In this document: one piece after another, positions 2,901-52,167 of the stretch
Numbering within the stretch: position 1 is the stretch's first letter
How the letters are laid out: every line of letters begins with the position of its first letter
Assembly (NCBI GenBank): GCA_001938485.1
Contig: MQRK01233649.1
Span: forward strand, 1 to 55,233
DNA length: 55,233 nt
Origin: Girardia tigrina
Taxonomy: Eukaryota
Reading direction: 5' to 3'
Made by a program: the position numbers and the translations under genes
The notes under the pieces: generated by a model
Told to the model about the DNA's origin: nothing
Database searches by the model: none
What the model saw: only the letters and a program-made list of their open reading frames with translations

Positions 2901-2906
2901 GTTTGT

Positions 2907-4785: not shown

Positions 4786-4946
4786 CGTTCTAAATTGATA
4801 ATTTTTTGTTAATGTTTGTTAATAAAGAATTATTCGAACAAATTTTTCATTATTTTCTGATTTTATTTTTAAAATTCAAATTTTGTAGTTTTAGTATTAA
4901 ATTTTATTTACATATTAATTTTATTTAAAATTTATTTTATGTAAAG

Positions 4947-6964
4947 TGTTGGGTGGGATATTGTTGGTGCTGGATTTTATATTATTATTTAAATTTTATT
5001 AATTTAAATTCATGTGTTTCTTGTTATGCTTTAGCATCTTAGTTTATTTTGACCCAACATATTATTTAGATATGTCTCTCCTCTAAGGGCCTCTAACTCA
5101 CACTTATTAGAGATCCATATCGTAACCCATCAACCCCATCTGGCCCTTTGATCTCGCCAGTGAAGTTGATGAAGTACCTACTGGGGTCCTACATTATATT
5201 TAAATTTATTAGGTCTATGAAAGTTGACTTATGCCACTTCTATTTAATTAACTGATTATCTTATTTTTTCTCAACATGTTTCCTTTTTATATGATTATTA
5301 TATTGCTTATTATGAGTTTATCAATTTCATATTAAAGTTAAAAGAACATGAACAAAACTTTGCATATTAAAGATTTATTAAAAATTGAAATCATCCAATA
5401 AGTCAATTAATCNNNNNNNNNNNNNNNNNNNNNNNNNNNNNNNNNNNNNNNNNNNNNNNNNNNNNNNNNNNNNNNNNNNNNNNNNNNNNNNNNNNNNNNN
5501 NNNNNNNNNNNNNNNNNNNNNNNNNNNNNNNNNNNNNNNNNNNNNNNNNNNNNNNNNNNNNNNNNNNNNNNNNNNNNNNNNNNNNNNNNNNNNNNNNNNN
5601 NNNNNNNNNNNNNNNNNNNNNNNNNNNNNNNNNNNNNNNNTAGCAATGGATTGTTCATTTACATTAAAGCAAGGAGTCTCTTCTAATTCTAAGTCACTTT
5701 GCCGGGTATGTTTCTGCTTCTTTTGGTATGAATCGGGATGGTCTGAACCTTGAATCTCTTTTAATTACATTTCTGCTTGTTGAAATAGTTGCGCCTTTCG
5801 TTTTCTTTGCTGGCGCCTTTTTTTTGTTCGGCTCATTTTGCTGGTCATTGATGCCATCATATCTTCCTTTGTGATAGACGCATGAATTGTAGAAGATGAA
5901 GCAAGGTTTACATCTTTCGCATCCATGGGTTCTTTTGCTGCAATTCTAGAAGCAGTCTCCAAGATCATCGCATGATCTTCTTGGGAAATTTTTTTTATTA
6001 TCTTTTTGTGGTACTCCAACATATTTTGTTGAATCCTCGACTCGGTAATTTCAGCTTGTAAGGCCTTTATTTTTGTTGCGATTACAGATATTTTTCCACC
6101 ATCGGTTTGTGTACGGATAAAGAAACGGAAATTCTTCTGTATTCCTTGAGCTCTGTTGTTTTTTCGGACAACTCTTTTGTATTTCTGTCGATTTCTTCTC
6201 TCCTTTTCTGAAGCTCACGAACAACCCTCTATCTTCTTTTTCATAAATCGGTCGATTCATTACTAAATGAGGATGAGAAGTGGATTCATTGATGTAATAA
6301 AACAAAAAAATAGTTGATGGAGATAAGTAAAGACAAATCCNNNNNNNNNNNNNNNNNNNNNNNNNNNNNNNNNNNNNNNNNNNNNNNNNNNNNNNNNNNN
6401 NNNNNNNNNNNNNNNNNNNNNNNNNNNNNNNNNNNNNNNNNNNNNNNNNNNNNNNNNNNNNNNNNNNNNNNNNNNNNNNNNNNNNNNNNNNNNNNNNNNN
6501 NNNNNNNNNNNNNNNNNNNNNNNNNNNNNNNNNNNNNNNNNNNNNNNNNNNNNNNNNNNNNNNNNNNNNNNNNNNNNNNNNNNNNNNNNNNNNNNNNNNN
6601 NNNNNNNNNNNNNNNNNNNNNNNNNNNNNNNNNNNNNNNNNNNNNNNNNNNNNNNNNNNNNNNNNNNNNNNNNNNNNNNNNNNNNNNNNNNNNNNNNNNN
6701 NNNNNNNNNNNNNNNNNNNNNNNNNNNNNNNNNNNNNNNNNNNNNNNNNNNNNNNNNNNNNNNNNNNNNNNNNNNNNNNNNNNNNNNNNNNNNNNNNNNN
6801 NNNNNNATTAAAAGTTTCTATTTTTTAATTAATTAATTATAAATTATAATATTTTTTATTTTTTGTTTTTTTAGATTTAGGGAGTTTTTCCTTTGCCTGC
6901 CTCGGTGCCGGTGCAATGAATAGGCTCGGGACTGACGCGAAGGAAAAACTTACGGGTCCCAACA
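4947..6964 (-). mobile_element. TGTTGGG..CCCAACA element of about 2 kb with 4-bp TSD (large solo LTR or Ginger-like non-autonomous element), copy 1
   Basis: AAAG TSD at 4943-4946 and 6965-6968; 7-bp terminal inverted repeat; near-identical inverted copy at 45626-47671. Confidence 0.9.
5641..6260 (-). pseudogene. Coiled-coil/basic (NLS-like) protein carried by the 2-kb element, copy 1 (disrupted)
   Basis: MNRPIYEKEDRG...MLEYHKKIIKK...SRTKKRRQQRKRKAQ; its disruptions differ from those in copy 2. Confidence 0.6.
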
Positions 6965-14007: not shown

Positions 14008-14749
14008 CAGGGTGGGCCAAAAGTAGGGTTACAGTTAACACTTAAACATTTTATCTTTATTAGAAATTTAGACATTTATTTACATACATTATATTTACAT
14101 AATAAACATTTTACATTGAACATTTAATCTCTCAAGTGCTCAAAATGTCCACCTTCAACCTTGCAACAATCTCTATATGTGTCCAAAACACTCTGACACA
14201 CAGTACGACACAAATTCCGATCTCCATCAATTTCAGTGAATGCATCTGAAATGTAATCTTTCGATTCATTCACTGTGTGGGGATTCCTCTCATAAACCTT
14301 GATCTTGACTACACCCCAAAAAAAGAAATCCATTAGTGTCTTGTCAGGTGAACGTGGTGGCCATTCAATGCAGCCCCGCCTTCCAAACCAATGCTGCGGA
14401 AAGACTTGATGAAGATACTCTCTTACTGTCTTCGCATAATGTGGAGGTGCTCCATCTTGCTGGNNNNNNNNNNNNNNNNNNNNNNNNNNNNNNNNNNNNN
14501 GTGGTACTACCACGTCACGAAGCATTTCCAAATAATTGTCTCCAGTAACAGTTCCATCAAAGAACACGGACCCGATAACACCTTCACTGGACAATGCACC
14601 CCACGTCGTAACGCCAGGCTGGTTCAGTTTGGACTCAATAGTCAAATGTGGATTCTTATCAGTCCAGTACACACAGTTATGCCTATTCACGTGTCCGGAC
14701 AATTTGAAACAAGCCTCATCGGACCAGATTATCTTATCTAGAAGGTCTG
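14008..14749 (-). mobile_element. Tc1/mariner DD41D (rosa/VS-type) transposon, 3' part; the rest is in the N gap
   Basis: TA followed by CAGGGTGGGCCAAAAGT TIR; ORF 14124-14702 with GHVNRHNCVYW, QQDGAPPHY, WPPRSPDKTLMDFFFWG (41 residues between the last two D). Confidence 0.9.
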
Positions 14750-15614
14750 NNNNNNNNNNNNNNNNNNNNNNNNNNNNNNNNNNNNNNNNNNNNNNNNNNN
14801 NNNNNNNNNNNNNNNNNNNNNNNNNNNNNNNNNNNNNNNNNNNNNNNNNNNNNNNNNNNNNNNNNNNNNNNNNNNNNNNNNNNNNNNNNNNNNNNNNNNN
14901 NNNNNNNNNNNNNNNNNNNNNNNNNNNNNNNNNNNNNNNNNNNNNNNNNNNNNNNNNNNNNNNNNNNNNNNNNNNNNNNNNNNNNNNNNNNNNNNNNNNN
15001 NNNNNNNNNNNNNNNNNNNNNNNNNNNNNNNNNNNNNNNNNNNNNNNNNNNNNNNNNNNNNNNNNNNNNNNNNNNNNNNNNNNNNNNNNNNNNNNNNNNN
15101 NNNNNNNNNNNNNNNNNNNNNNNNNNNNNNNNNNNNNNNNNNNNNNNNNNNNNNNNNNNNNNNNNNNNNNNNNNNNNNNNNNNNNNNNNNNNNNNNNNNN
15201 NNNNNNNNNNNNNNNNNNNNNNNNNNNNNNNNNNNNNNNNNNNNNNNNNNNNNNNNNNNNNNNNNNNNNNNNNNNNNNNNNNNNNNNNNNNNNNNNNNNN
15301 NNNNNNNNNNNNNNNNNNNNNNNNNNNNNNNNNNNNNNNNNNNNNNNNNNNNNNNNNNNNNNNNNNNNNNNNNNNNNNNNNNNNNNNNNNNNNNNNNNNN
15401 NNNNNNNNNNNNNNNNNNNNNNNNNNNNNNNNNNNNNNNNNNNNNNNNNNNNNNNNNNNNNNNNNNNNNNNNNNNNNNNNNNNNNNNNNNNNNNNNNNNN
15501 NNNNNNNNNNNNNNNNNNNNNNNNNNNNNNNNNNNNNNNNNNNNNNNNNNNNNNNNNNNNNNNNNNNNNNNNNNNNNNNNNNNNNNNNNNNNATATATAT
15601 ATATAAATAATATA

Positions 15615-16951
15615 CAGGGGTGGCCATAAGTCGCTTTACTCGGTTTTAATAATAATAAACACAAAATTCTAAATGATGTATAAACAAAAATCAGATAATT
15701 TTTTTTTGTTTTAATAATTATTTATTTAAAGATTTTTAAAATTATTTCATTTTGTTCATTGTTGTTGCCAATATTGGCATGGCACGACAATTAACACTTC
15801 AGCAACGAATTTTTATAGTAAATAAGCGAATAAAGCATGATAGAAATTCAAGAGCTGTAGCTGCAACATTTGCAAAAGAGTATCCTAATGACGTTCCTCC
15901 ATCACGACAATCAATGCATGTTTTGGCTAAAAACTTTCACGAGACCGGCTCTGTAACCGACAAGAAAAGAAGTGGGCGCCCTTACAATATGAATACCGAT
16001 GAAAATAAAGAAAATGTTAGAAATTTCTATCAGAATGCGCCATCAACATCTGCAGTTCGTGCAAGTTTGCAGTTGCATATACCACGCAAAAGTTTACGTA
16101 GAATAATGAAGGACATTGAGTTGAAAGTTTGGCGGCCTCGTTTGCTCCATCAAATGAATGATGACGATTATGACAGGCGCATAGAATTTTGCGAATGATT
16201 ACAGCAACAACTCCTGAGAACATTGACATCATGGACAGAATAATTTGAACCGACGAAGCTTCATTTAAGTTAAATGGTCACGTTAATTTGCATTATGCCG
16301 TGTACTACTCCACTGAGAATTCTCATCTGGTATGGGAGATCAACAATCTTTCTCCATGAATTTGTGTGTGTGGGGAGGAATACGTTCAACTGGTGTGCTG
16401 GGTTCATATTTCTTTGATGGAACGATCAATTCTCAGCTATATCTCGACATGCTGCGTGATTTTGCCGTACCTCAGCTTGACACAGCTAACGACGTTTGGA
16501 TACAAGACGGTGCTCCCCTCATTATGGTAGAAATGTACGCGACTTTTTGGATAACACTTTTGAGATGTGGATCGGCAGGAGAGGAACCACTGAATGACCT
16601 CTACGATCACCGGACCTGACACCTTGTGATTATTCAATGTGGGGTATCCTGAAGGAACGCGTTTACTCACAAAATTTTCTAACCATATCCGAGTTGAAGG
16701 AAAGAATTACTGCAGAATTTGCAGCCTTGAACAACGATAAAGACTTGTACCGACGAATCTGTCACTCTGTTCAGAGAAGAATCCAGTTATGTATTAAATC
16801 TGAAGGACAACACTTTGAAGATAAGATTTAATTGTTTTCAAGTTTTTGTTTTGAAATTATTATTGTACGCTGATTAAATAAAAGTTGTATCATTTAGAAT
16901 TTTGTGTTTATTATTATTAAAACTGGGTAAAGCGATTTATGGTCACCCCTA
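15615..16951 (+). mobile_element. Full-length Tc1/mariner DD40/41D-type transposon with a disrupted transposase (15780-16831)
   Basis: TIRs of about 60 bp (CAGGGGTGGCCATAAGTCGCTTTAC...) flanked by TA; motifs RSGRP, TDEASF, QDGAP, RSPDLTPCDYSMWG, EGQHFE. Confidence 0.92.
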
Positions 16952-18884: not shown

Positions 18885-19782
18885 CTGTCGTTTTCAAGTT
18901 TTTAAACATTTATTGCACTGTTTAAAGCCTGCCGCATCATCTACCAATTATATCCAACTTAATCGATATAGATGCAGTCAGAATCATCTATTCCGGATCT
19001 TAAATAATTCACTGCGTATTCTTTTCGCAGTGATTTTACTCGATCACAGTTCTTCACCTGGATATTCGCTCTGATCTTCTTGATGGTGTAGCATTTTTGA
19101 TGCATGATGCGGTCCATTGTTGATGATGAGCACTTCACATTGCACTGGAATAGAAATTTGATAATCTTATTTCCAATGTCCTCTGTAATAATGGAAGGTC
19201 TAGGGCATCCCCATTTCTTTGCAGCAACAGATTCTGTTTTCTTGTATCTCTGGATTATGCTTTTTGTTGTTTCTTTGCCTATGTCTAACTGAGAGGCTAA
19301 CAAAAAGTACTCCTGATTGTTGATGAATGAGTCATTTATCCAAATTTTGTCTAATTGCAATATTCTATAAATTAATAAATTTGGATTTTAATAAATAAAA
19401 AATCACGATTCTTATTTATTTGCCTTAAAGGTATGGTTTCTCCTGCAGTTTAGGAGTCATTATAAAATATATTTAACATTAATTTAATTAAAATCGTTTA
19501 CTTTTCATTTAAATCTTGTACTGAAGGCCTTGAATCCTCCGAAATATCCGAATTATAAAATAAAATACCACAATTTATAAATTAAAATGGGTTTTAAAAA
19601 GTGGTAAAGGTTTTAAATAGTGATAAAAACTTTGGTGTTTTTAATGTGCATGTGAATTTCTGATTCGCTGATTTTATGCGTCGTATGTATGCACATTTCT
19701 GTGTATGTGTGTGCATGCATCTAGCTTATATTTTCAGGTCTTAAACAGTGATACGTGGTTTTAAACAGTGGAAAAGTAACTG
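18885..19782 (-). mobile_element. Internally deleted Tc1/IS630-like transposon
   Basis: ORF 18959-19360 with an HTH (LASQLDIGKETTKSIIQRY), CSSSTMDRIM, and RVKSLRKEY...CIYID (first catalytic D); degenerate TIRs containing CACTGTTTAA, flanked by TA. Confidence 0.7.
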
Positions 19783-23529: not shown

Positions 23530-24558
23530 CTAACAATGAACAAAATCAAATACAGTCTCCTGTTGTATCTCCGCAGAGGTTCTTAATTTTTTAAATTGTA
23601 TATTTTGAGAAATGTGATCAAAAGATTTCAAAAATATATCAAACAGGAATTTCATATCTTTATTTGTTTTCACTTTAATANNNNNNNNNNNNNNNNNNNN
23701 NNNNNNNNNNNNNNNNNNNNNNNNNNNNNNNNNNNNNNNNNNNNNNNNNNNNNNNNNNNNNNNNNNNNNNNNNNCTTCAACTTTTTGGAAAAAATTAAAT
23801 AAGGACAAACCATTGTCATTGTTGGCGCTCATCAACAATGCAAACAATACAAAACACTCTCTCTCGAAAGCCTCGAAATTGAAAACACAACCGGAATCCA
23901 TTGTTGTTATCAAATCGCATTCAAAACTGATTACGACTCTGGAAAACTCAATCAATAAGCTGGCCATTAACATAACCATTTTTGGCGTCAAAGATGATTG
24001 ATCATTCAACCCATGCAATCCTTGAGCATCAAAAATTTGAAACAAACAACCGATCACAACTGATTTGGCTCGGGAATCACCGACTTTCAAAAACGCAAGC
24101 AAATCATCTATAACATCCGTATTGACCATTTGATACCGCAATAAATCTGGCATCGACTCCACCACAACGATTTTACTATCTATTTCTGCGATTTGAGTGA
24201 TAGAAAAACAATTTAATAGTTCTCCAAAACTGACAAAAACGCCATCAATGATCGATAGATAAACGGTCAATCCCTGTCTCATCGACAATCGAATCAAGGA
24301 ATTGACAAAATTAATCATTTTGGTGTGAAATTCATTTTTGTTAGAAGTTTTAATTTTATTTGAATCTATTATCGTTCGTGGATGAAGATTTGAGTCTCTA
24401 ATAATTTGTTCAGGCGATGGTGAACCGGTTTCTAACACTAATGGCGAGCCAAACGAAATACTGTGACGTGAAGAAAATCGAAATGAGTTTTGCGATTTAA
24501 AAAATGATGACATTTTGAAATTTTTTTTTAATACAGACAAAACGGTTGAAATATTCAA
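23530..24558 (-). CDS. Hypothetical helical protein (about 327-342 aa; likely ATG at 24513)
   Basis: Long open frame in very AT-rich DNA, spanning a 94-nt N gap; no recognisable motif. Confidence 0.5.
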   Translation of the reverse strand: MNISTVLSVLKKNFKMSSFFKSQNSFRFSSRHSISFGSPLVLETGSPSPEQIIRDSNLHPRTIIDSNKIKTSNKNEFHTKMINFVNSLIRLSMRQGLTVYLSIIDGVFVSFGELLNCFSITQIAEIDSKIVVVESMPDLLRYQMVNTDVIDDLLAFLKVGDSRAKSVVIGCLFQIFDAQGLHGLNDQSSLTPKMVMLMASLLIEFSRVVISFECDLITTMDSGCVFNFEAFERECFVLFALLMSANNDNGLSLFNFFQKVEXXXXXXXXXXXXXXXXXXXXXXXXXXXXXXXXIKVKTNKDMKFLFDIFLKSFDHISQNIQFKKLRTSAEIQQETVFDFVHC

Positions 24559-25339
24559 ATTGTTTATTTTTTTTTAATTCTCAGTTAATTGTGATAACGA
24601 TCATTCACAAAAAAAATCATACACACATACTTTCTTTTCTTTCTCTCTGTTCAATCATATTAACACATTCACTGTATGTACACACATCGACAATTATATT
24701 TCATTACACAAAACAAATTCACACAACACACAAACACATCTTACTGGTAAAATACCTAATTCAAATATTGATTTGACTATATATTGATCAACTATTTTAA
24801 ATAAACAATAACAAAAAGAGAACATATTTCAAGGTGAAGGATATTTCCACCTATAAGTTAATAATCAATACGGCACCAGGAGATTGAAATCATTTTGAAA
24901 AGTCATGGAACATACAATAATGAACTGAAACTGAATATATTTCACAATCATAACATCTGCTCATAAATCGAGTCTTTGATTTCAGTTTTTTGTTAGATTA
25001 AAGAAGGATTTTAAATCATTCAGAGATCGATAAAATTTTGCAAATGTTTTCTGAGAAAATACATTTCCAATAAAATTTTATTTTTCAACAGCGCGATTTA
25101 GACGAAAGAAAAGCAAAAATTGACTCATATGGTATTTGCATCATCACAAAACCATATGAACGTGATGATTTCATATTCACTTATTTACATATATTTATAT
25201 ATTTAATTTTTTTTAAGTATTAATTTATTTTAATTATTTTTAATCAATTATTTTAATTAAATTATTATATTTTTAACAAATGGGTTCAAAAAAAGAGTAA
25301 AAATGGAATCGCAACGCGACCATCTCCCATCCTTGAGCT

Positions 25340-26600: not shown

Positions 26601-27494
26601 AACGAAACTTTCCCGACGGTCTCCGAACATCTATCTATTCCTGAACCTGTATCATAAATAAATAAAGTAAAGTAAAAATTTAGATTAGCCACTGTGCAAA
26701 ATGTTAATGATAGAGCAAAACTTATTTTATTTTCCTGTCCTAATTTTGTATGGGTTATATCACTATAAAACTAAACTCAAAGTGAGGTAAGTAACGTTTA
26801 TAGGATTTACCCAATTTTCAAAGTTTATTCTACGCATAATATATTGTTTTGTAGACCGGTTGTTGGACATTTGTGTTGAATAATTACAAATAATATATTA
26901 CCTGAAGGTAATAATTTATATTTCTTTAAAATAGGCATTTTTCTTAATTTGTTTAATAATCATAATTATTCTTTAGAATTTGCGATCATCCACCAAGTCA
27001 AACTATTTAAAATTATTTTGTTTTGCAAATTAATGCCGTTTAAATTTATAAAACTGTCAAAACATATTAATTCAATTTTTTATTAAGATATGTAATTTTT
27101 TTTTGTATTTGTGTAAATTTTCTAAATGTGTGTGGGGTTAGATGCTACAGCGTCTTGTAAAATGTGGTTTGCTATCATTTAATAAAAATCAATGTTTTAC
27201 TAAACGTTTTATATGTAGTTTGATAATAAAATACTCTAATGAGACTCTTATAATTTTATTAATTTTATTTAGCAAAAAATTATCCCAGGCTTGTCCCCTG
27301 GATACGCCCTTAACACATTTAACTTAATTATCTGCATTTAAAATTTATTTTTTTTTATTTTTTGTATTCAATTTATTTTTTGACAAAATGATACTTAACA
27401 TTTCGGGGTCATTAATTGAAGAATAAACGTTTTCGCTCTTTTTTGAACACCACTTCCTGCGGATAGTTTATAACCTAAATATTTTATTTTAGAA

Positions 27495-28430
27495 ATGGAT
27501 CACTTTCCAAATTATTACAAAGTTTGGGGAAAGGTTAATTTTGGATTGCTGACCCTTCTTAGCTTTTTAGGAATAATTGGTAATTTCCTAGTTTTTATGA
27601 TAGTTCTAAAGGACAGAGCCATTCGAAATTTTACAAAAGTTTTACTTATCAATAATTGTATTTATGATTTCTTATGTATCATTTTTCCGGGAATTAATTT
27701 GATGTATTTTTTATTTCAGTTATCAGACATGAAACTAGGTAATCCGCTTTTATGTGGAATATTGAATATTTTTATATATATGTTTTCGTATGGACCTATA
27801 CTTTGTACATCTTTAGTGTCTGTAGAAAGATTTCTGATGGTTCACTTTCCAACGAGTATTTTTCTTAGATCATTGAAGCTGTGGCACGGAATTATTGTCG
27901 TCCTTTTAATAACAGTTTTTAACTTTGGTTTTTTTGGAAATTATTATCAAAGTATTGATATATCTATATTATGTTTTGCTATTTCAATATTCTATTTGGG
28001 AAATAATTGTTCTATTCTGATTATATATGGTATTGTACCCTTTTTGATTAATTTAGTATCTGCTGTATACCTGCTTAAAGTTATAGGAAAAAGTCTCAAA
28101 ACTTCAAACCAAACAAATGTGAAGGACAACATTGTCAATCGACAGAGGTGGACAATCAAAACGACCATCGTAGTTTCTCTAAACTCTTTATTTACATATA
28201 CTCCTTACATAATTTTATTATTTTTACATAATACTAGGTATATATCACCAACATACAATATACAAATTTTTACTTATTCAGCTAATATTTTATTAATTAG
28301 TAATTCTTGCATAAAAATTTTTTTCTATATGTTCACAAAACATTTTCGGTTGAGTTTGTTGAAGCTAGTTTGTCCGGAAAGATACTCGACGAGTCAAGCC
28401 CAACTGACCACCATCCAAAGAAATACCTAA
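27495..28430 (+). CDS. Rhodopsin-like (class A) orphan GPCR, intronless, paralogue 1
   Basis: 311 aa with seven hydrophobic segments; TM1 GN, TM2 D, TM3 Cys and SVERF (DRY equivalent), TM5 P, TM6 TPY, TM7 NSCIKIFFY, helix 8 FR. Confidence 0.92.
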   Translation: MDHFPNYYKVWGKVNFGLLTLLSFLGIIGNFLVFMIVLKDRAIRNFTKVLLINNCIYDFLCIIFPGINLMYFLFQLSDMKLGNPLLCGILNIFIYMFSYGPILCTSLVSVERFLMVHFPTSIFLRSLKLWHGIIVVLLITVFNFGFFGNYYQSIDISILCFAISIFYLGNNCSILIIYGIVPFLINLVSAVYLLKVIGKSLKTSNQTNVKDNIVNRQRWTIKTTIVVSLNSLFTYTPYIILLFLHNTRYISPTYNIQIFTYSANILLISNSCIKIFFYMFTKHFRLSLLKLVCPERYSTSQAQLTTIQRNT

Positions 28431-30954: not shown

Positions 30955-31660
30955 TTTACCACGTTTTTATAAGCCCTCTTTCTTGTCTGTTTGTCTGTCT
31001 GGAACAAATCTTGCGATTGATTTTTCGACCACTTTCAGTCATCCAATTGAGCTGAATTTTTTTATACAGGCTTGCTTCCGATGACAATACAATTTGATAA
31101 AAAATTTTGAAAAAATATAATTTTTTTGCAAAAAACCACTTACGATTATCTACAAATTTATACACTGTATTAAATAGCAATCTTTTCGTTCATTTTCATG
31201 AATGAAGTTTTATACAGGCTTGCTTCCGATGACAATACAATTNNNNNNNNNNNNNNNNNNNNNNNNNNNNNNNNNNNNNNNNNNNNNNNNNNATGATAAC
31301 TAAAAATAGTTAAATAATATTATTAATAAAAAATTTTTTTATAAAAACAACCACGTTTTTCAAGCATTACCAATGCACTAAAAAGAGGAAAATAATTTTT
31401 TTTCTAGACATTTAAGAAATTTTATACCTAACCAAAAACGTGGGGCATAGAAATGATCGATTGTTACTAAAAAGCAGTAAAGAGGAAAAAGCAGTTACTA
31501 ATAGCAGTAATTCAGAAATCCGCCCCACGTTTTTATTTAGGTATAAAATTTCTCACATGTCTAGAAAAAAATTATTTTCCTTTTATTAGTGCATTGGTAA
31601 TGCTTGAAAAACGTGGTTGTTTTTATAAAAAAAAATTTTTATTAATAATATTATTAATAA
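30955..31660 (+). mobile_element. DINE-1/Helentron-like element plus an inverted partial second copy
   Basis: Reverse complement of 7315-7902; internal duplication at about 31210-31242; about 31523-31650 is an inverted copy of about 31315-31446. Confidence 0.65.
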
Positions 31661-32599
31661 TTTTTTTAGTAAAATTATTAATTTCAAACAAAATAATATT
31701 TAGTTTAACAAAATTTGGAATCTAAAATTAAAAATATTTTAGTCTTTGTTTTAATTGATCAATTTTCAAGGCTGATGAAAATTACTATATAAACAGCAGC
31801 AAATATAATTTTAGTTTGCCCAAAAATATTTGCTGAAAAATTCGCCTAAGAAGAGTTCACGTAATCAAGTAAAGTGAATACCAAATTTATTTAATTTTTA
31901 TTTTATTCTTTAAAATATTGTTTTATTAATGAAACCATAAGTATCCCGTATGGGAGAAAAAGGTTGTTAAATTTTAATCAAATCATCGTTCGTTTTTGGA
32001 GATTTACAGTTTTTACTGTAATCTGTTAACTCGTACGAAATATTTATTTGTGTTTTTGTTTTGTCATCAAGAATTGAATTATTATTTTTGACTTGTTAAT
32101 TTTTGTTATTTGAAATAAAGTTTCATAAAAGAATTTGTGTTCATTGTCTATATATTTATGTTGGAAGTCCTTTCTGATTAATTGGAGTCAGATGAAAGAT
32201 TAAAGATTTCACATTGAACATTATTGAATAAAGATTAAAGAATAGAGATTTACGATTAAAGATTTAAGATTTGTGTTTTAAAAAGTAAATAATTATATTT
32301 AAGATTTCTAATACCCAACAGAACCAATATATTGAGGTATTAATTATCAAATAAAAATTATTTGGTTGTGTTATTGTCGTGAAATCGATTTGAGTGTATT
32401 TTTATCGATTTTGTGACTGATATATATTTGTTCATTTTGGCGCAATATTTTAATTATTGGTTTTCTGTTTTGTCTTTTCTTCTTTTTGGATCTTTTGTCA
32501 ATTCTGCTTTTTTATTATTTTTAATTTGAGAATTTATTTGAATTGATTTGGTTATTATTAATCATGGGGATTAATTAATTAATCAAAGATATATTAATG

Positions 32600-40980: not shown

Positions 40981-41800
40981 TATTTTAATTTTAAAGCAAA
41001 AAATATTGGTTATATTTGATCGGTCATTACAATTAATTAATAATTTTCTTTCAAATAATATATTAATTTAATATAATTTTCATATATCTCTCTTTTCAGT
41101 AAAAGTAAAAAAAATTCCCTTCTTTTTTATTATTATTCGAAAATAATATTATTTTATTTTTCAACAAACGGAAAGAATTTAAGTTTTAATTATTTTTAAA
41201 TGGTATCAGATGAATAATATTAATCGAACATTAAAATGTTTTAAATATTTAACTTTCGTTATTGCTTTAAAAAACCGATTTTTATAATGAATGATTAAAA
41301 AATAATAACAAAATATAAATATCGCATTTTTTTGTAAAGCAAAGTTGAGTTAATTTTTACATTCGATCAGAGAGAAAAACAAAATAAAATTGCAAGGAGA
41401 CTTTTTGTAATTTTAATAACATGATTTTATTAATAATAATTATGCGAACAAATTTTAATTTAAAAACATGAATCAGAAAAATTAATTACAAAATATTGCG
41501 TCCTTAAATATTTTTTTAGAAGTATTCTTTTTATTTTTCTTATACTCTTTTTTCCGATTGACCAAAATACATTGTAAATTAATTCTATTTATTTTAGATT
41601 TTTAATTTTTGGTATTAGATTTATTATTTTGATAAAATTATACTTAATGTAAATGTACGGATGTGTCACGTTAAAAGTTTATGTCTATTGTGATATTGTA
41701 AATCCTATTTTTCTTTATATTTTTTTATTTAAGAATTTTAAGGTATCTTTGTAGGGGAAAAATGGGCATTCTCCGGCACCCCCCGGAGGGATCGTAACTA

Positions 41801-42035
41801 GTTACCGCGCGGTTACCGTGGCAACGTAACCAGTTACCGCGCGCGGTTACCCTGGCAATGGTCACTGTTGCCATGGCAACGGTCGCGGTTACCATAGTAA
41901 CGGTTGCGATCACCTTAGCAATGCTTCTGATTGGTTCCTTGGTTCCCTAGCAACGGTCACGATTACCTAAAAACACTTCTGATTGGTCAGTAACCACCTA
42001 GCAACGGTGGCGATCACCACAATGGTTACCGTAAC
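41801..42035. promoter_or_regulatory. Array of RFX X-box-like palindromes (21-bp period) with two inverted CCAAT boxes
   Basis: GTTACCGTGGCAAC 41812, GTTACCCTGGCAAT 41846, GTTGCCATGGCAAC 41867, GTTACCATAGTAAC 41888, GTTCCCTAGCAAC 41942; CTGATTGG at 41927 and 41979. The motifs are read directly; function is inferred. Confidence 0.6.
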
Positions 42036-42251
42036 CATGATACATTACATTTTAATATTATATATATATATATATATTTAATATGGATATATAGTCGAAA
42101 ATACCTTAGATATCATCACTGCTATTTCTAAAACCATGAAAATACCTTAAAAATCATCGAAAGCATGTAAAAACCATCAAAATTACACAAAAAGTGCAAA
42201 AAATCAATTCTGAACATGTGCTAATCAATACTGCACATGTGCTTATCAATA

Positions 42252-42491
42252 CTATACATGTGCAAGTGTGTGAAATAATAAGTTCACAATTGTACAAAGT
42301 GCAATGTATTCATGTTTTAATATAAAATAGTGTAAAGTGGGGTTGAACACACATATGGTATAAAGAGCGAAGCAAGCAAAATATTGAAAATCTGCCTGAA
42401 CACATTGATAGTAACTCATATATGAATATTCAGAATATGATCTTAGATTTTTGAAAAAATCAATAAGTGGTGCTTTTTCGAACATATGCAC
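42252..42491 (-). CDS. Small Tyr/Cys/Phe-rich ORF in the left TIR (one repeat unit)
   Basis: Open in both TIRs; counterpart of 49374-49709. Confidence 0.3.
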   Translation of the reverse strand: MHMFEKAPLIDFFKNLRSYSEYSYMSYYQCVQADFQYFACFALYTICVFNPTLHYFILKHEYIALCTIVNLLFHTLAHV

Positions 42492-45400
42492 ATTATATAT
42501 GCAAATATTATAGATATGTATTATATTATGATATTATACTATGTTATCAGCCAATGTCGTGCCAACCATTTAAAACATGGCCAAGGAGATATCGTCATGC
42601 ATTCATCATGTCAACGTATTGTATATATCATGTCAACGTATTGCATTCATAATGTCAACATAATGTACAGTTGAATATTTTGTATCTTATATAGTTTTAT
42701 ATTATATATTTTATATGTTATTTTATATCTTATATATTTTTATATTATATATTTAATATGTTATTTTCTATAACAAAAGTTGTTTTTTACAAGTTTATGA
42801 ATAAAGACAGGTATAAGACAAGTATTTTTAACAAACATTTTTTTTACATATGTACAATATTTACAAGTATATCATTCACAAAAGATAATATCCATGAGGT
42901 AATGTACTTATTCCATCTGACAAAATATGTCGTTTATCGTCAAACCAGTCAAGGCTTTTCTTTCGCATTATGGTATTCTCTTGATTAGGTCCTTCGAATT
43001 TTACAATGATTATAAACAACACCAATTCGAAAAAGAATATATTCAAAGAAATAATGTCGAAGATGATTCAACAATGTCCTTTATACAGATGTTGTATGGC
43101 AAATTTTCATAGTTCGCAAAATTTTCATGATACAATGCATCATTACTATGTTTATGCTTTCAACTGATGCGAGTATTACATTTGTCCAGTGTGTCAAAAT
43201 GCAAGTAGTGGTGACTATCATTAATTTTATGATAACCACAAGGACCATTTGTTTGACTTTTCAAACAAGTCTAAGAAGACTATTTTCCAATCATCAGCGT
43301 ATCCAGCAATTGAGAAGAATGTTTCAATTGAGAAAAATAGTTCAAATAAGGTAAAAGTTCCTTTAAAACATGTAAATGTTACAAATTTTTCAATGCAGAT
43401 ACCTGTTTCAAATACAGTCAACGCAACCAAGGCAGCCAATGCTTCAAATATTACATCAAAACGTGCAAATGATACAAATATCAAAAATATTCCATCAAAA
43501 TGTTCAAGACAGAGACTAATTCATAAAGCTTCATTGAATAAGAAGGTGCGTCAATATGTTATAAAGGCTCCCCAGGCTAACCTAGACAGCCTTGGCAGCC
43601 TAGGCTGCAAGGTTACAAGTCTCCATGAGTTTCTGGAATATTCCAAGAAGGAAACTATGGAGATTCTACAAGATAACATGGTTGATTTCAAGGCTATCAA
43701 AGTCAATCTTAAATTTGAGGCAACATTCACCAATGTCGATGATGAATTATCACATAGAGCCTTCAAGACAAAAAATAGGCCAATATTAGAATCTGATGAT
43801 ATTTTGGAGTGGTTCAGTGAAGAACATACCCAAATAATAAAGGAAGCCAATGAAAGCAAGGAAAAGAAGAGTGGATGATATATTGCATCTGTAAATCAGT
43901 TGATAATTCATGTTCATAAATACTCATCAATGAGAGGTAGCTCCTACATTCTGCTTCCTGAATGGATAGTCAAGAAAAAGGCATGCATCAATGCTCACAA
44001 TGAAAACAACATGTGCTTCAAGTATGCTATGCTGTCGAACTTCGTGGAAGATCAACAAACTGCAAAACGAGTATCAAAATACAACAATCTGCAGTACACA
44101 TATGACTTCAACTGCATAAAATTCCCACCAAGCCTTAAAGAAGTCACTAAATTTGGAAGCCACAACAATGTATCAATCAACATATTTGGATTAGAGAATG
44201 AAAAATTTTATCCCTTACTTGTATATAAGGAAGAACTGGAAGATCATATGGATTTGCTCTTCCTAGATGATGGAGAAAAGAGACACTTCATCTGGATCAA
44301 AAAATTTGAACGTCTTCTTAGATCCCAAATATCGAAACATCATGGAAGTATCGAGATTTGTAAAGGATGCTTTACATATTTCAATAGAGATGATGCAACA
44401 AACAAGTATGAAGAACACAAGGCCTATTGCAATAACATTCATTGTATCAGAGCGGAATTTCCCAAGGAAGATTATATCGAATTCAAAGAATATGAAAAGA
44501 TGCAGAAAGTTCCCATTATAATATATTGTGACTTTGAAGCTATTCTAAGCCCAATCCAAACAAGCAATCCGGATCCACAACTTAGCAGTACGACAGCATA
44601 CCAGTATCATGAGCTATCATTATACTGTATGTATGCATTGGGTATTATCAAGGAGCCATTTTTATATAGAGGTTCAGATGCAGCAGAACATTTTATGCAA
44701 CGTATGGAGACTTATGCCCACACAATTAAAGACATGTTGCAGCAACACAAGTTCAACATGATAATGACATGGCAAGAAAAATGTGAATGGAACATGGCAA
44801 CACAATGCTACTTGTGTGAAAAACCATTCACAAAAGACAATTACAAAGTCAAGACCATTGTCATTTTACTGGAAAATATTGAGGAGCAGCATTCAATAAC
44901 TGTAATTTGCGATGTAAAACATCTATAAATGTTCCTGTTGTTTTCTACAATTTTAGTGGATATGACTCCCATTTCATAGTAAGAGAATTGGGAAAAATCA
45001 AAGGGAACATAGATGTTATTCCAAATAGTGAGGAAAAATACATCACATTTACCAAGCATGTGGAAAGAATTAAGCTCCTATTCATCGATAGTTTCCGGTT
45101 CATGTCATCATCGTTGCATAGCCTTGTCAAGAATCTTCCAGCAGATGAACTAAAGGAAACAAAAAAGTTCTTCCCAAATACATTTGATTTGGTCAAAAGG
45201 AAAGGAGTATTCCCATATGACTATATAACATCATGGAGATAGCTGGATGAAACAACATTGCCAGCAAAAGAGGCATTTTACAACAAATTGAACGACACCG
45301 ACATAAGTGATGCTGATTATCAACATGCACAAAATGTCTGACAAGCTTTCAAATGCCAAACACTTGGAGAATATAGTGATGTATACCTCAAAACAGATGT

Positions 45401-45625
45401 GCTGCTTCTTACGGATGTCTTTGAGAGCTTTCGGGATGTGACACTTAAGAGCCACAAGTTGGATCCAACTCATTTCTTTATATCACCAGGTATGAGTTGG
45501 GCAGCAATGTTGAAATATGCAGGCATAAGGCTTCAAATCCTGAAAGATTACGACATGATCCTCATGCTGGAAAAAGAAATCCGAGGTGGAATCTGTCAGT
45601 CTATTCATCGGTATGGTGAGGCAAA

Positions 45626-47671
45626 TGTTGGGACCAGTGAGTTTTTCCTTCACGTCAGCGTCGGGCCTATTCATTGCACCGGCACCGAGGCAGGCAAAGG
45701 AAAAACTCCCTAAATCTAAAAAAACAAAAAATAAAAAATATTATAATTTATAATTAATTAATTAAAAAATAGAAACTTTTAATTGGTTTTGATCCTTGGA
45801 TCCTGTTGATTTGAATATTTTCTTGTGGGAATTTGATGGCCTGATTTGTTGACGTGGGTTTGATCGGAATTTTGGCCATCTCCAGGTTGTTTCTACCTGA
45901 GGACTGTTGACTTAGTGATGGATGATTGAAAGTTGACTGTGAGAATTGTCTGCTTGCTGGTTCTGTGAGTTTTTGTGACGAAAGATTGGTATGAATTCGT
46001 TTGAATTGTACACTCTACCAGAAATTTTTTATCATCAAATATATTTTAAACAAAGAATTTGACTTGGTAAATTTTACCTTTTATTTTTTTTGTTGTTGAT
46101 GGAGGTTTTGAGATGTCTTCATGGTTGCCGATCAATCGATGGGTAACGGCAGGTGCTGATAGTGCCTGCCGAGACTGTTGACGATCAGGCAGTAAATATT
46201 TCTCGAGGATATTTGAAAACTACCAACCTGTCAATAAGGAACGGCGGGTTCTTTTAGTGCCTGCCGGGCCTGTCGAGGATCTGGTTGTGAAAAGACGTTA
46301 TCGTTAAACTGAGGATTTGTCTTTACTTATCTCCATCAACTATTTTTTTCGTTTTATTACATCAATGAATGAACTTCTCATCCTAATTTAGTTAATGAAT
46401 CGACCGATTTATGAAAAGGAAGATAGAGGGTTGCTTCGTGATCTTCAGAAAAGGAGGGAAGAAATCGACAGAATTACAAAAGAGTTGTTCGAAAAAACAA
46501 CAGAGCTCGAGGAATACAGAAGAATTTCCGTTCCTTTATCCGTACACAAACCAATGGTGGACAAATATATGTTATCGTAACAAAAAATAAAGGCCTTACA
46601 AGCTGAAATTACCGAGTCGAGGATTCAACAAAATATGTTGAAGTACCACAAAAAGATAATAAAGAAAATTTCCCAAGAAGATCCTGTGATGATCTTGGAG
46701 ACTGCTTCTAGAATTGCAGCAAAAGAACCCATGGATGCGAAAGATGTAAACCTTGCTTCATCTTCTACAATTCATGCGTCTATCACAAAGGAAGATATGA
46801 TGGCATCAATGACCAGCAAAATGAGCCGAACAAAGAAAAGGCGCCAGCAAAGAAAACGAAAGGCGCAACTATTCCAACAAGCAGAAATTGAATTAAAAGA
46901 GATTCAAGGTTCAGACCATCCCGATTCATACCAAAAGAAGCAGAAACATACCCGGCAAAGTGACTTAGAATTAGAANNNNNNNNNNNNNNNNNNNNNNNN
47001 NNNNNNNNNNNNNNNNNNNNNNNNNNNNNNNNNNNNNNNNNNNNNNNNNNNNNNNNNNNNNNNNNNNNNNNNNNNNNNNNNNNNNNNNNNNNNNNNNNNN
47101 NNNNNNNNNNNNNNNNNNNNNNNNNNNNNNNNNNNNNNNNNNNNNNNNNNNNNNNNNNNNNNNNNNNNNNNNNNNNNNNNNNNNNNNNNNNGACTTATTG
47201 GATGATTTCAATTTTTAATAAATCTTTAATATGCAAAGTTTTGTTCATGTTCTTTTAACTTTAATATGAAATTGATAAACTCATAATAAGCAATATAATA
47301 ATCAAATAAAAAGGAAACATGTTGAAAAAGAATAAGATAATCAATCAATTAAATAGAAGTGGCATAAGTCAACTTTCATAGACCTAATAAATTTAAATAT
47401 AATGTAGGACTCCAGTAGGTACTTCATCAACTTCACTGGCGAGATCAAAGGGCCAGATGGGGTTGATGGGGTACGATATGTATCTCTAATAAGTGTGAGT
47501 TAGAGGCCCTTAGAGGAGAGACATATCTAAATAATATGTTGGAGAGACATATCTAAATAATATGTTGGGTCAAAATAAACTAAGATTCTAAAGCATAACC
47601 TGTTAACATAAATTTAAATAAATAAAATTTAAATAATAATATAAATTCCAGCACCAACAATATCACCACCA
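45626..47671 (+). mobile_element. TG..CA element of about 2 kb, copy 2, inserted in pPolB with 4-bp TSD CAAA
   Basis: CAAA at 45622-45625 and 47672-47675; removal restores YGEANNKYMKNYDPSK; inverted copy of 4947-6964. Confidence 0.92.
46395..46976 (+). pseudogene. Coiled-coil/basic protein of the 2-kb element, copy 2 (one in-frame TAA at 46578; runs into the N gap)
   Basis: ORFs 46395-46580 and 46635 onward are in one frame, separated by a single stop that reads CAA in copy 1. Confidence 0.65.
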
Positions 47672-48789
47672 CAAACAACAAATACATGAAAAATTATGAT
47701 CCATCCAAGGCATCTTCATACATAACATACTTGGATGCCAACAATCTGTGTGGATTGGCAATGAGTGTTCCATTACCTTTTGATAATTTTAAAACAGTGG
47801 ATCAACCGAAAGAAATTCGAATAGAAAAACTGAATCCTAATAAAGATGTGGGTTACATATTGGAAGTGGATGTTGATTATCCAAAATCCATCCATTCAAG
47901 ACATGAGCAGCTACCTTTCCTGTCTGAAAGCAAATGTCCACCAAATGGAAAACATAATAAGCTGCTCTGTCACTTGGAAAATAAATAAAAATATGTGGCC
48001 CATTACATCAATCTACAACAAACTGTAAAGAATGGGCTCATAATCCCAAAAATCTATCGTGCACTTCAGTTTAATCAATAAAAAATGGCTTAAGCCATAT
48101 ATTGACTTTAACACCAATCTGAGGACCAATGCCAAAAATGACTTTGAAAAGGATCAGTTCAAATTGTAAAATAACAGCGTTTTTGGTAAAACGATGGAGA
48201 ATATCCGCAACAGAATCAACCTCGAGCTGGCATGTGATTGGAAGCGGCAAAGAAACTCATTAACAAATCAAATTTCCACAGTAGCGTCATATACACTGAA
48301 AACTTTGTGAGTTTACACATGCTGAAAACATCACTGACGTTTAATAAACCGATATATGTGGGGATGTCAATTCTGAATCTATCCAAGACCTTGATGTAGG
48401 ACTTCCACTATGACATCATGGTCCCTAAATTCAACCACAATTTACAGCTAATGTATATGGATACTGATAGCTTTGTCTATCAGATTCATACAGAAGATCT
48501 GTTTGCGGAGTTTTTTTCAAATGGCTACAACATATGGATATCTCAGATTATCTAAAGGACCATCCAAATTATTGAATATCAAATTGAATATCAAAATGTC
48601 CTTGGGAAGTTTAAGGATGAAGTCAATGGTCAAATCATCTCTAGATTCGTGGCACTACGATCTAAGATGTATGCCATTGATGTGGATGGTAAGATCAAAA
48701 AGAAGACAAAGGGAGTTCAACTGGCAACGTTAGCAAACCAAATCGGATTCCATGATTATATGACAGTGCTACGGGAACAATTCAATATA

Positions 48790-49906
48790 ATTTCTTAAAT
48801 GCAAAGGATCCAATCAAGAGAACATCAAGTCTCCACATTAATGATGCAGAAGAAAAGCCTTGACTGGTTTGATGATAAACGACATATTTGTCAGATGGAA
48901 TAAGTACATTACCTCATGGATATTATCTTTTGTGAATGATATACTTGTAAATATTGTACATATGTAAATAAATGTTTATTGAAAATACTTGTCTTATACC
49001 TGTCTTTATTCATAAACTTGTAAAAAACCACTTTTGTTATAGAAAATAACATATAAAATATATAATATAAAAATATATAAGATATAAAATAACATATAAA
49101 ATATATAATATAAAACTATATAAGATACAAAATATTCAACTGTACATTATGTTGATATTATGAATGCAATACGTTGACATGATGGATGTATGACGATATC
49201 TCCTTGGATACGGCCATGTTTTAAATGGTTGACACGATATTGGCTGATAACATAGTATAATATCATAATAAAATACATATTTATAATATTTGCATATATA
49301 ATGTACATATGTTCGAAAAGCACAACCTATTGATTTTTTCAAAAATCTAAGATCATATTCTGAATATTCATATATGAGTTACTATCAATGTGTGCAGTCA
49401 GATTTTTCATATTATGCTTGCTGCGACCTGTATACCATATGGGCATTCGACCCCACTTTACACTATAATACACAAGATATCAATAAAGCACTATGTTTTG
49501 ATTTTTTCGAGAATCTAAGATCATATTCCGATTATTTACCTATGGATTACTATACATGTGTTCAGGCAGATTTTCGATATTTTGCTTGCTTCGCCCTTTA
49601 TACCATATGTATGTTCGGCCCCACTTTACACTATATTATATTAAAACATGAATTCATTGCACTTTGTACAATTGTGAACTTATTATTTCACACACTTGCA
49701 CATGTATAGTATTGATAAGCACATATGTATCCTAGACAGCCTGCCTAGGTTTAGTGCAGTATTGCTTAGCACATGTGCAGTATTGATTTTTTGCACTTTT
49801 TGTTTAATTTTTATGGTTTTTACATGTTTTCGATGATTTTTAAGGTATTTGTCATGGTTTTAGAGATAGCAGTGATGGTTTCTTAGGTGTTTTCGACTAT
49901 ATATCC

Positions 49907-49946
<40 letters not shown>

Positions 49947-50433
49947 TGTTATGTATCATGGTTACGGTTACCATAATACTTAAGTTATGGTTAGGCTGAG
50001 GTACATTAGATGATTATACATATGTTATGTATTATATTGATGCATGCTTGAAGTACAATAGGAGTTTTTACATGTAAAATAAAATGTTATGTATCTTGGT
50101 TACGGTAACCATGGTACTTGTAATTATACTTGTGTACATTAAGAGATTCATGATGTATTGTTTGATTGTTAACAACATACATATATCATATGGGTTTCAG
50201 ATATATATATACGAAAAAATAGATTTTTGAGCACTTTTTTGAAAATTTCAGAAATTTTCGAAAAAATCGATTTATCAGCACTTTTATGAAAATGTTAGGG
50301 AACCAATCAGAAGCGTTGCTAAAGTGATCGCGACCGTTACTATTGTGATAGGGACCGTTGCCATGGTAACCGCGTGGCAGCTAGTTATGAGCCCCTTCGA
50401 GGGGGTGCCGGAAAATGCCCATTTTACCCCTAC
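48790..50433 (-). repeat. Right terminal inverted repeat (about 1.64 kb), including the pPolB 3' end
   Basis: Inverted match to the left arm, plus an extra tandem unit of about 168 bp and an extra segment at about 49975-50290. Confidence 0.9.
49374..49709 (+). CDS. Small Tyr/Cys/Phe-rich ORF in the right TIR with an internal repeat of about 56 aa
   Basis: 111-aa ORF; the unit DFF.NLRSYS.Y..M.YY.CVQ.DF.Y.AC..LYTI..F.PTLHY is repeated in frame. Confidence 0.35.
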   Translation: MSYYQCVQSDFSYYACCDLYTIWAFDPTLHYNTQDINKALCFDFFENLRSYSDYLPMDYYTCVQADFRYFACFALYTICMFGPTLHYIILKHEFIALCTIVNLLFHTLAHV

Positions 50434-51228
50434 TATGTTTATTTTTATTTGCCTCTTGGGAGGTATATTTTATTCCTTAACCTTTAGTTAACACATTTTC
50501 CTTTTTTTAATAGTCAAAAAAAACAGATCGAGAAAAGTGAAATGTCAATTTTATTTTCGATAAGAAAAAGACTTGTCAAGAAAAATAAATTATTTATGAT
50601 TTCCATTTCCACATATTACGAAAGAAATGAAAATTGAAATTCAAAATTTAAATAAAATAAATTAAAAATATTAATTAGTTAGATAGAAATATTGTCTAAT
50701 ATAAAATTATTACGTCAAACTTACCATTACAATTCTGTCCAGAATTCTAATAACAGACTACGATAAATTCCATTCCATTTTCTATTATTTCAGTCAAAAC
50801 AAACAATTTATCACTTCCAAATCATCCATATTATTCGAAAAATTTATATATCACTAATCAGTTCAAAGTTTTGATTCTGTTATTACAAAATATTGTTATT
50901 GCAAATTATTGGATAAAGAAGATTGACAACAATTTTGTTATATCACTGTTATTTAAAACTGATCTGCTGATTAATCAGATGTATATTATTTTTAGTTTTG
51001 TTATTAATACATTTTAATAACTAAAAGTCATTATTTTCATTACTAAAATACTATTGTTATAATCTAGCTGCTTTCCTTTGTGTACCATTTCATAGAACAA
51101 TCAAAGGAAATCCTTTAGCATTATACACTTAACATTGCGGTGTCATTGATTGAATAATACACATTTTCGCTCTTTTTTGAACATCACTTCCTGTGGAAAG
51201 TTTATAACCTAAATATTTTATTTTAGAA

Positions 51229-52167
51229 ATGGATGACTTTCCAAATTATTACAAAGTTTGGGGAAAGGTTAATTTTGGATTACTGGCCCTTCTTAGTTTT
51301 TTAGGAATAATTGGAAATTTCCTAGTTTTCATGATAGTTCTAAAGGACAGAGCCATTCGAAATTTTACAAAAGTTTTATTGATAAGTAATTGTATTTATG
51401 ATTTCTTGTGTATCATTTTTGCGGGAATCAATTCGATGTATATTTTTTTTCAGTTATCAGACATGAAACTAGGTAATCCGCTTTTATGTGGAATATGGAA
51501 TATTTTTATGTATGTGTTTTTGTATGGACCTATACTTTGTACATCTTTAGTGTCTGTAGAAAGATTTCTGATGGTTCACTTTCCCACAAGTATTTTTCTT
51601 CGATCATTGAAGCTGTGGCACGGAATTATTGTCGTCCTTTTAATAACAGTTTTTAACTTTGGTTTTTTTGGAAATTATTATCAAAGTGTTGATGTATTCA
51701 TATATTGTTTATCTATTTCAATATTCTATTTGGGAAATAATTGTGCTATTCTGATTATATATGGTATTTTACCTTTTTTGATTAATTTAGGATCCGCTGT
51801 TTACCTTCTTAAAGTCATAGGTAAAAGTCTTAAAGCTTCAAACAACACAAATGTGAAGAACAACATTGTCAATCGACAGAGGTGGACAATAAAAACGACC
51901 ATCATAGTTTCTCTAAACTCTTTATTTACATTTACTCCTTACATAATTATATTATTTTTATATAATACTGGATATATTTATCCCACATATGTTGTACAAA
52001 TTATAACTAATTCAGCTAATATTTTATTAATTAGTAATTCTTGTATAAAATTTTTTTTCTATATGTTCACAAAACATTTTCGGTTGAATTTGTTGAAGCT
52101 AGTTTGTCCGGGGAGATACTCGACGAGTCAAGCCCAACTGACCACCATCCAAACAAATACCTATTAA
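51229..52167 (+). CDS. Rhodopsin-like (class A) orphan GPCR, intronless, paralogue 2
   Basis: 312 aa; about 37 substitutions versus 27495-28430; flanks are also homologous (about 51125-52600 vs 27390-28880). Confidence 0.92.
   Translation: MDDFPNYYKVWGKVNFGLLALLSFLGIIGNFLVFMIVLKDRAIRNFTKVLLISNCIYDFLCIIFAGINSMYIFFQLSDMKLGNPLLCGIWNIFMYVFLYGPILCTSLVSVERFLMVHFPTSIFLRSLKLWHGIIVVLLITVFNFGFFGNYYQSVDVFIYCLSISIFYLGNNCAILIIYGILPFLINLGSAVYLLKVIGKSLKASNNTNVKNNIVNRQRWTIKTTIIVSLNSLFTFTPYIIILFLYNTGYIYPTYVVQIITNSANILLISNSCIKFFFYMFTKHFRLNLLKLVCPGRYSTSQAQLTTIQTNTY

Follow-up and report, generated by a model that had tools for sequence, protein, structure and literature searches.

The closest described systems to the element treated here are the Polintons or Mavericks (polintoviruses, adintoviruses) whose pPolB, a family B DNA polymerase with protein priming, carries an EndoVII/HNH insert. 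The element occupies positions 41751-50434 of a 55,233-nt stretch of Girardia tigrina DNA (contig MQRK01233649.1, assembly GCA_001938485.1, forward strand; the whole stretch is called the window), and it shares with them the AG...CT-type ends, a 6-bp target-site duplication, terminal inverted repeats (TIRs) and a polymerase with terminal protein (TP), vOTU, exonuclease and polymerase domains. It differs in its size, 6.6 kb against 13-25 kb (10.1101/2023.08.22.554363), in having no integrase, ATPase, protease or capsid gene, and in an inverted repeat that extends into the polymerase gene. It is judged to be a real, well-bounded and dead polymerase-only Polinton derivative, the long arms of which come from a copied right end.

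In copy-back defective viral genomes, both ends derive from one end, and the non-autonomous Polinton-N families of Repbase are short, essentially non-coding TIR-bounded derivatives that are moved in trans. The '2RT' copies of Galileo, a P-element-type transposon, resemble the element in that internal sequence adjoining the TIR was copied in inverted form to the opposite end, and in having arms of about 1.2 kb with tandem-repeat length differences (PMC3573991); its authors propose that the TIRs were extended by repair templated on the opposite TIR, and inverted-repeat expansion has been reported for Polintons too, according to the same source. The Galileo copies with the longest TIRs have no transposase, whereas the element keeps its replication gene (PMC3573991). 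In Pieris butterflies, Polinton TIRs have likewise grown, to about 2 kb, via gene capture, and copies that miss a core gene and carry transposable-element cargo have still amplified (10.1101/2025.02.07.637071); these copies lose polB and keep the structural genes, a mirror image of the present case, and their mobility is shown by multiple insertions. Fungal cytoplasmic linear plasmids of the pGKL type are also capsid-less TP-vOTU-pPolB replicons with TIRs (PMC11161782, PMC11071308); those have other genes as well and show no integration with a 6-bp duplication, whereas the element is known here in integrated form only.

Loss of the capsid module is already known, since nine elements without the major capsid gene are also without protease and ATPase (PMC4028283). 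Most vertebrate Polinton/Maverick copies are degraded (PMC8097293), partial remnants of the polymerase end occur in C. elegans (10.1101/2024.01.15.575659), and a survey in the anole encountered no non-autonomous Polintons (PMC3014272). Titles and abstract openings surfaced by literature searches contained no description of a polymerase-only Polinton, a search that leaves Repbase, subscription papers and supplements outside its scope and does not establish absence from print; the terms 'mini-Polinton' and 'pPolB only' had no occurrence in the part of the literature checked.

Regarding its boundaries, the element measures 8684 bp, or ~6.63 kb once a nested insert of 2046 bp is subtracted. Its symmetrical ends are as first described, with GTAGGGG at 41751 and CCCCTAC at 50427-50433, followed by a T at 50434; the right end is thus read as ...CCCCTACT, and the TIRs have the AG...CT-type ends of Polintons, except that the left one is without its first A. 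With that A lost, the flanking duplication is 6 bp long with one mismatch (ATCTTT/ATGTTT), within the 5-8 bp range of Polintons; of the two lengths in the original prediction, this is the one confirmed. Agreement at 5/6 bases is reached by random AT-rich pairs from the local flanks in 1.8-2.4% of 200,000 draws, a chance of about 2%. With pPolB, TIRs and target duplication all present, the Polinton origin was borne out, and it is largely confirmed that 41751-50434 represents one Polinton/Maverick insertion. The features of the locus are listed here in their order along the window.

41745-41750, forward strand: left target-site duplication ATCTTT, 5/6 bases equal to 50435-50440.
41751-41940, forward strand: left terminal block, a GC-rich, internally repeated native TIR; 18/135 mismatches against 50297-50433, with a 55-nt length difference.
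41940-42021, forward strand: block private to the left arm, for the most part one more diverged unit of the terminal subrepeat array; no right-arm match, aligns to a unit within 41861-41940.
42022-42965, forward strand: left middle arm, inverted copy of right subterminal 48846-49974; 37/913 mismatches.
42876-43001, reverse strand: inverted copy of the pPolB 3' coding end, with the stop at 42876-42878; the innermost 42971-43001 is far more diverged.
43002-43053, forward strand: 52-nt spacer, assigned to neither arm nor gene, which contains TATAAA (43011) and an in-frame ATG (43006) and is matched nowhere else in the window.
43054-45625, forward strand: 5' part of the pPolB pseudogene, from alignment, fold matches and PF03175, relatives being 59-85% identical; two degenerate C2H2-like fingers, then the TP domain (~43534-43929), the vOTU domain (~43951-44304), the exonuclease region, which bears the EndoVII/HNH insert (~44790-44910), and the beginning of the polymerase part.
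45626-47671, forward strand: nested TG...CA insert, probably a solo long terminal repeat (LTR), flanked by CAAA as a 4-bp duplication; positions 46977-47191 are an assembly gap.
47672-48935, forward strand: 3' part of the pPolB pseudogene with polymerase motifs A, B and C; every full-length homologue matches it in tblastn, and its stop codon (48933-48935) falls within the right arm.
48797-49974, forward strand: right subterminal region, the putative template for the left arm; it includes the final ~139 nt of pPolB, besides two diverged 168-bp units in tandem at 49317-49638.
49975-50296, forward strand: right-only block of 322 bp, with a second copy of the 33-bp motif found where the middle arm begins.
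50297-50434, forward strand: right terminal block ending ...CCCCTACT, which pairs with the left terminal block.
50435-50440, forward strand: right target-site duplication ATGTTT, which pairs with 41745-41750.

The assembly of the window is a draft, rich in AT; of its 10 N gaps, one falls inside the element. Outside the element, the left flank (41566-41647) matches 27312-27398, upstream of a paralogous G-protein-coupled receptor (GPCR) gene, with a score of 69, where 200 shuffles gave 51 at most and 32 other host windows 44 at most; the right flank matches from 51127 onwards a stretch that starts at 27393 and adjoins the left-flank match upstream of the same paralogue. Because both flanks match adjoining stretches, one insertion into continuous host DNA is favoured, and their collinearity also supports correct scaffolding across the internal gap. 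No empty site was found at nucleotide resolution, the GPCR paralogue being without the stretch around the insertion point.

As for the arms, the left one spans 1251 bp and the right one 1638 bp, which makes ~43% of the insert-free element; the long TIRs predicted earlier, with more than 40% of about 6.6 kb, hold as regards these spans, but they are not continuous near-perfect repeats, and only ~1080 columns align. The terminal blocks differ at 18/135 columns (13.3%), and the middle block at 37/913 (4.1%), with gaps of 168, 29 and 22 nt; past a further 14-nt gap, the innermost block of 31 nt has 6 differences (19%), and its 25/31 matches were reached by none of 2000 shuffles. Blocks private to one arm amount to 82 bp on the left and 322 bp on the right. 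When reverse-complemented, the innermost ~126 nt of the left arm correspond to the final ~139 coding nt of pPolB with its stop, and five of nine pPolB homologues match this segment by tblastn in frame -2 (42968-42891). The left terminus folds modestly better than shuffles (z -2.3), and no further match to the TIR occurs elsewhere in the 55-kb window. Given the inverted polymerase 3' end in the left arm and the near absence of left-specific sequence, the left arm reads as essentially a copy of the right end, apparently joined 52 nt upstream of the probable pPolB start; the long arms are better explained in this way than as native long TIRs.

The inverted-copy end and the sequence upstream of the gene meet at a single junction, 43001/43002, where the spacer begins. 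The TATAAA of the spacer is within chance, a TATA-like hexamer occurring in 27% of shuffles, and so are its 17 stop-free codons in the frame of the gene (17% of shuffles); the promoter scan applied used a bacterial model and is not meaningful for this DNA. The spacer may hold a retained promoter or be a clipped 5' end of the gene, either being equally possible. Segment 43054-43200 aligns loosely to the first two C2H2 fingers of the homologues P0001-P0003, which places the gene start probably at 43054 or 43063, as judged from distant relatives only. None of the eight proteins of the second homologue search described below extends upstream of 43270; a homologue search with the 216 N-terminal codons retained one of 60 candidates (P0016), which does not extend to the first ~130 codons, and an Atlas look-up of the N-terminal open frame returned no usable match.

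Regarding the polymerase itself, the gene is full-length but dead, with all polymerase domains present. Its open frame of 349 codons retrieved nine longer proteins among 817 candidates, 28-36% identical; by tblastn, the homologues of 1175-1393 amino acids cover the locus from about 43350-43690 through their C-termini and continue across the nested insert. A second homologue search gave eight proteins out of 417 candidates, five of which are fragments with 66-87% identity, all on short contigs. A structure model of 43006-44853, with stops read as X, had a mean pLDDT of 59.6 and an unreliable part in its first 179 residues; its residues 177-308 match the little-finger folds of Y-family polymerases (Z 9.3, rmsd 3.4, 116 aligned residues; Foldseek E 4e-4), and residues 316-433 match OTU proteases (Z 6.6, rmsd 3.7, 100 aligned residues), a score that is middling alone, yet many OTU chains are in the match list. 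These two folds correspond to the TP and vOTU assignments in PMC11161782. PF03175 is found on 44832-45626 (E=7e-11); PF02945 (EndoVII) was detected by Pfam in all five intact homologues scanned, and in the window, where a frameshift splits it, it is visible by alignment only. A search of solved structures with the sequence of the C-terminal part gave no match. The gene is a pseudogene of a protein-primed family B polymerase with TP and vOTU domains; the TP/vOTU/EndoVII layout proposed at first is upheld by alignment and fold matches, and region 43050-43900, singled out at first for a search, turned out to be the polymerase N-terminus (zinc-finger-like part, linker and TP domain) and not another gene.

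That this copy is dead, as also proposed, is evident from 10 stops in 3786 aligned nt, from frame changes near 44850, 48080, 48250, 48520-48590 and 48890, and from the insert nested in the gene. The polymerase region (43054-48935) has a CpG observed/expected ratio of 0.40 against 0.94 in the window overall; possibly, methylation was targeted to the element, or the depletion was inherited from an earlier host.

Comparators came from a scan of genome contigs, which gave 40 pPolB loci (L001-L040) in prokaryotic genome bins; these are evidently mis-binned eukaryotic or viral contigs, and their DNA similarity to the window is confined to the polymerase. Two of them, L004 and L020, look like complete Polintons, in which the genes for protease, ATPase, capsid, PLA2, integrase and pPolB follow in this order, the last being terminal, pointing to the right end and preceded by about 9 kb of genes; other loci, such as L017 and L037, have different gene orders. 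In a midpoint-rooted tree of 42 rows, built on one 265-codon segment with 32 of the 40 loci and nine proteins kept, loci with too short a match being left out, and composed without reference group-1 or group-2 pPolB sequences, the window groups with P0007 (95/87) inside an eight-row clade that also holds P0001-P0004 and a Bemisia tabaci protein (97/90); this clade is sister to the one with L004 (99/96). None of the 40 loci has the subrepeat motifs or the palindrome of the window, and its short end motifs turn up in them at internal, apparently chance positions only. Among related Polintons of one bin, inverted repeats of 0.7-1.9 kb were observed (L014, 13471-15355 and 21398-23264; L039; L029/L034), one pair of which holds two integrase copies; two polymerase genes also converge across an inverted repeat. 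In the homologue P0011, the sequence jumps from the vOTU region to the C-terminal region of the polymerase, as an internal deletion derivative of the same family.

The claim that only pPolB lies between the arms was confirmed, with no remnant of other Polinton genes found by Pfam or by tblastn; integrase or capsid remnants, named beforehand as an outcome that would speak against a polymerase-only element, were looked for and none was found. All 176 window matches of the 589 open reading frames (ORFs) from the 40 loci, a query set that includes Pfam-recognised integrases, ATPases, proteases and capsid proteins, fall on the polymerase: 159 on its strand, 13 in antisense shadow frames and four on the inverted gene end. 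Positive controls in L004 and L020 recovered the ATPase, the protease (weakly) and the major capsid protein. Pfam on 24 frame translations gave neither rve nor any relevant family, a result of low power as the polymerase was missed too, being detected only when the correct piece was supplied; an exhaustive profile search in a non-polymerase frame had no match, a weak negative for a hidden gene there, and an Rfam scan of 41000-51500 had none either. With 52 nt of interior that are neither arm nor gene, there is no room for other genes. Since the RVE integrase is missing, as are the packaging ATPase, the protease and the major and minor capsid proteins, the element counts as a Polinton derivative, not as an autonomous Polinton.

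As for its origin, it is fairly probable that one end-replacement, i.e., a template switch, both lengthened the TIR and removed the block with integrase, capsid, ATPase and protease. The parent would have been an ordinary integrase- and capsid-coding Polinton with pPolB last and facing the right end, a gene order suggested by L004 and L020. DNA synthesis begun in the left terminal repeat would have taken the right end as template, pairing through the shared TIR, and copying would have advanced inward over about 1 kb, reaching into the final ~139 nt of pPolB; rejoining just upstream of the pPolB start would then have cost roughly 9-10 kb of genes, and the middles of the arms would later have been partially re-homogenised. 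The single junction at 43001/43002 and the 82-bp left private block, which is TIR subrepeat, are consistent with this sequence of events.

Several observations weigh against the end-replacement. The contrast between terminal and middle divergence, with P 7e-5 overall, falls to P 0.14 after base composition and CpG are taken into account. Divergence in the innermost 31 nt resembles that of the termini (P 0.40) and exceeds that of the middle (P 0.002), which suggests that the junction is old, an awkward point for a late, purely chromosomal origin; homologues polarise three of the six innermost differences, and the gene copy holds the older state in all three (chance 1 in 8), hinting at a junction as old as the insertion or older, although clusters of mutations at a repair junction would look alike. 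Over the N-terminal open frame, identity to the closest complete proteins is 28-36%, and L004 stands in a sister clade only; with no close full-length parent, both the parental gene order and the native TIR length are extrapolated. In addition, native Polinton TIRs reach 1,447 bp (PMC8097293), so that arm length alone requires no special event, and the right-only block of 322 bp needs extra deletions or a second template switch.

The same old-looking innermost block, with its ancestral state in the gene copy, would also suit a parental family with a native TIR of 1.2-1.6 kb already extending over the 3' end of pPolB, combined with a later, ordinary interior deletion in this copy. Intact vertebrate Mavericks have TIRs of 46-1,447 bp and 96% of copies are degraded (PMC8097293), and P0011 demonstrates internal deletions in the same family. 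Such a deletion, however, requires one breakpoint at the arm's inner edge and another no more than ~52 nt from the gene start, with every polymerase domain spared, and in none of the 20 related loci of at least 6 kb, all distant relatives, does the polymerase end lie within an inverted repeat; this origin is considered unlikely.

Somewhat less credible still is an established polymerase-only satellite, that is, a 6.6-kb lineage that copied itself via its TP-vOTU-pPolB and depended on a helper integrase and perhaps on helper capsids. Its appeal lies in the clean, minimal content (both termini and a polymerase with all domains) and in the old look of the junction, and decay of the inverted fragment may have taken place with the gene still under selection; moreover, Pieris Polintons without polB are mobile despite the missing core gene (10.1101/2025.02.07.637071), and proto-polintons that lost the morphogenetic module gave rise to cytoplasmic linear plasmids (PMC11071308). 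Against this, there is a single copy, with no second TIR match in the window and with its layout in 0/20 loci; the promoter is only putative, and the 5' end of the gene may have been cut off; a cis-only parasite would have no need to keep the polymerase; and the large differences between arm blocks are those that a replicating panhandle genome should even out. The original prediction of a replication-competent satellite mobilised in trans is not demonstrated, as one copy cannot show mobility; the long arms read better as a copied right end, a copying that could have occurred in the chromosome, and a one-off event, its own alternative, is at least as likely. It is likewise rather improbable that animals host capsid-less, integrase-less Polinton satellites, built of two right ends and a TP-vOTU-pPolB gene, that exist as nuclear linear plasmids and are inserted by helpers.

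A chimera of two inverted or nested Polintons, or a short-read misjoin, is very improbable: the draft state of the assembly with its gap inside the element, the convergent and inverted arrangements in L029/L034 and the Polinton-mediated rearrangements documented in C. elegans (10.1101/2024.01.15.575659) leave some room for it, but the junction lies in gap-free sequence, arms that are 4-19% different cannot come from a collapsed or chimeric read (an amplification chimera was rejected on the same divergence), the gene continues exactly across the insert with its 4-bp duplication, and the target duplication and collinear host flanks fit a single insertion.

Regarding when the end-replacement took place, the dating clues are weak and in conflict; two settings are almost evenly balanced, with a slight lean towards repair in the chromosome after insertion over a defective linear genome that arose during replication and was inserted by a helper integrase. 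The 10 stops imply a decay of 4.5-4.9% (95% interval 2-9%); the divergence of the terminal blocks predicts 9-10 stops and that of the middle block about five (P 0.03-0.05), and because the count fits the former better, the last equalisation of the middle arms probably took place in the chromosome, when pPolB was already decaying. The window differs at 12/99 columns where four relatives agree, the three closest relatives at 2-4 of about 90, and the more distant P0012 at 17/104.

If the event was a one-off, the locus offers a clean worked example of TIR growth and gene loss in a Polinton through a single act of copying from end to end, and it cautions that what looks like a very long 'TIR' can be a captured gene end. 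Recurrence of the junction at independent sites would mark a polymerase-only Polinton able to propagate, and virus-to-plasmid reduction and a free replicating Polinton stage in animals would become directly testable; were the satellite reading true, the locus would be an animal fossil of the same reduction step that lies behind fungal linear plasmids. A nematode survey required five core genes (10.1101/2023.08.22.554363) and a vertebrate survey called elements with eight or seven intact ORFs 'intact' (PMC8097293); such gene-content filters would overlook polymerase-only elements or lump them with the degraded class.

As for the nested insert, pPolB resumes exactly past it, and it is a later, unrelated insertion, most likely a solo LTR. 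A twin lies at 4952-6964 on the reverse strand with its own 4-bp duplication; 46/1270 columns differ between the two, and the assembly gap falls at the same internal spot in both. The 2-kb TG...CA element carries an ORF of more than 130 codons with no convincing Pfam match and no Atlas match; a solo LTR with an ORF and a non-autonomous integrase-type transposon are the candidates for its identity. The twin was also considered as an LTR of the neighbouring gypsy element, which was rejected on account of its own 4-bp duplication.

Elsewhere in the window, a 347-codon open frame with an N gap lies on the reverse strand at 23530-24573, with no Pfam match. Fragments of gag, protease, reverse transcriptase and RNase H of Ty3/gypsy type, all degraded, are found at 439-4818 on the reverse strand, and Tc1/mariner-like transposase remnants together with a short foldback inverted repeat at 14124-16198, 18959-19387 and 31299-31670. 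Two GPCR genes of the 7tm_1 (rhodopsin) type, at 27495-28430 and 51229-52167, are intact and intronless; they are ~8% diverged across a 1.5-kb duplication, and the Polinton lies ~800 bp upstream of the second gene.

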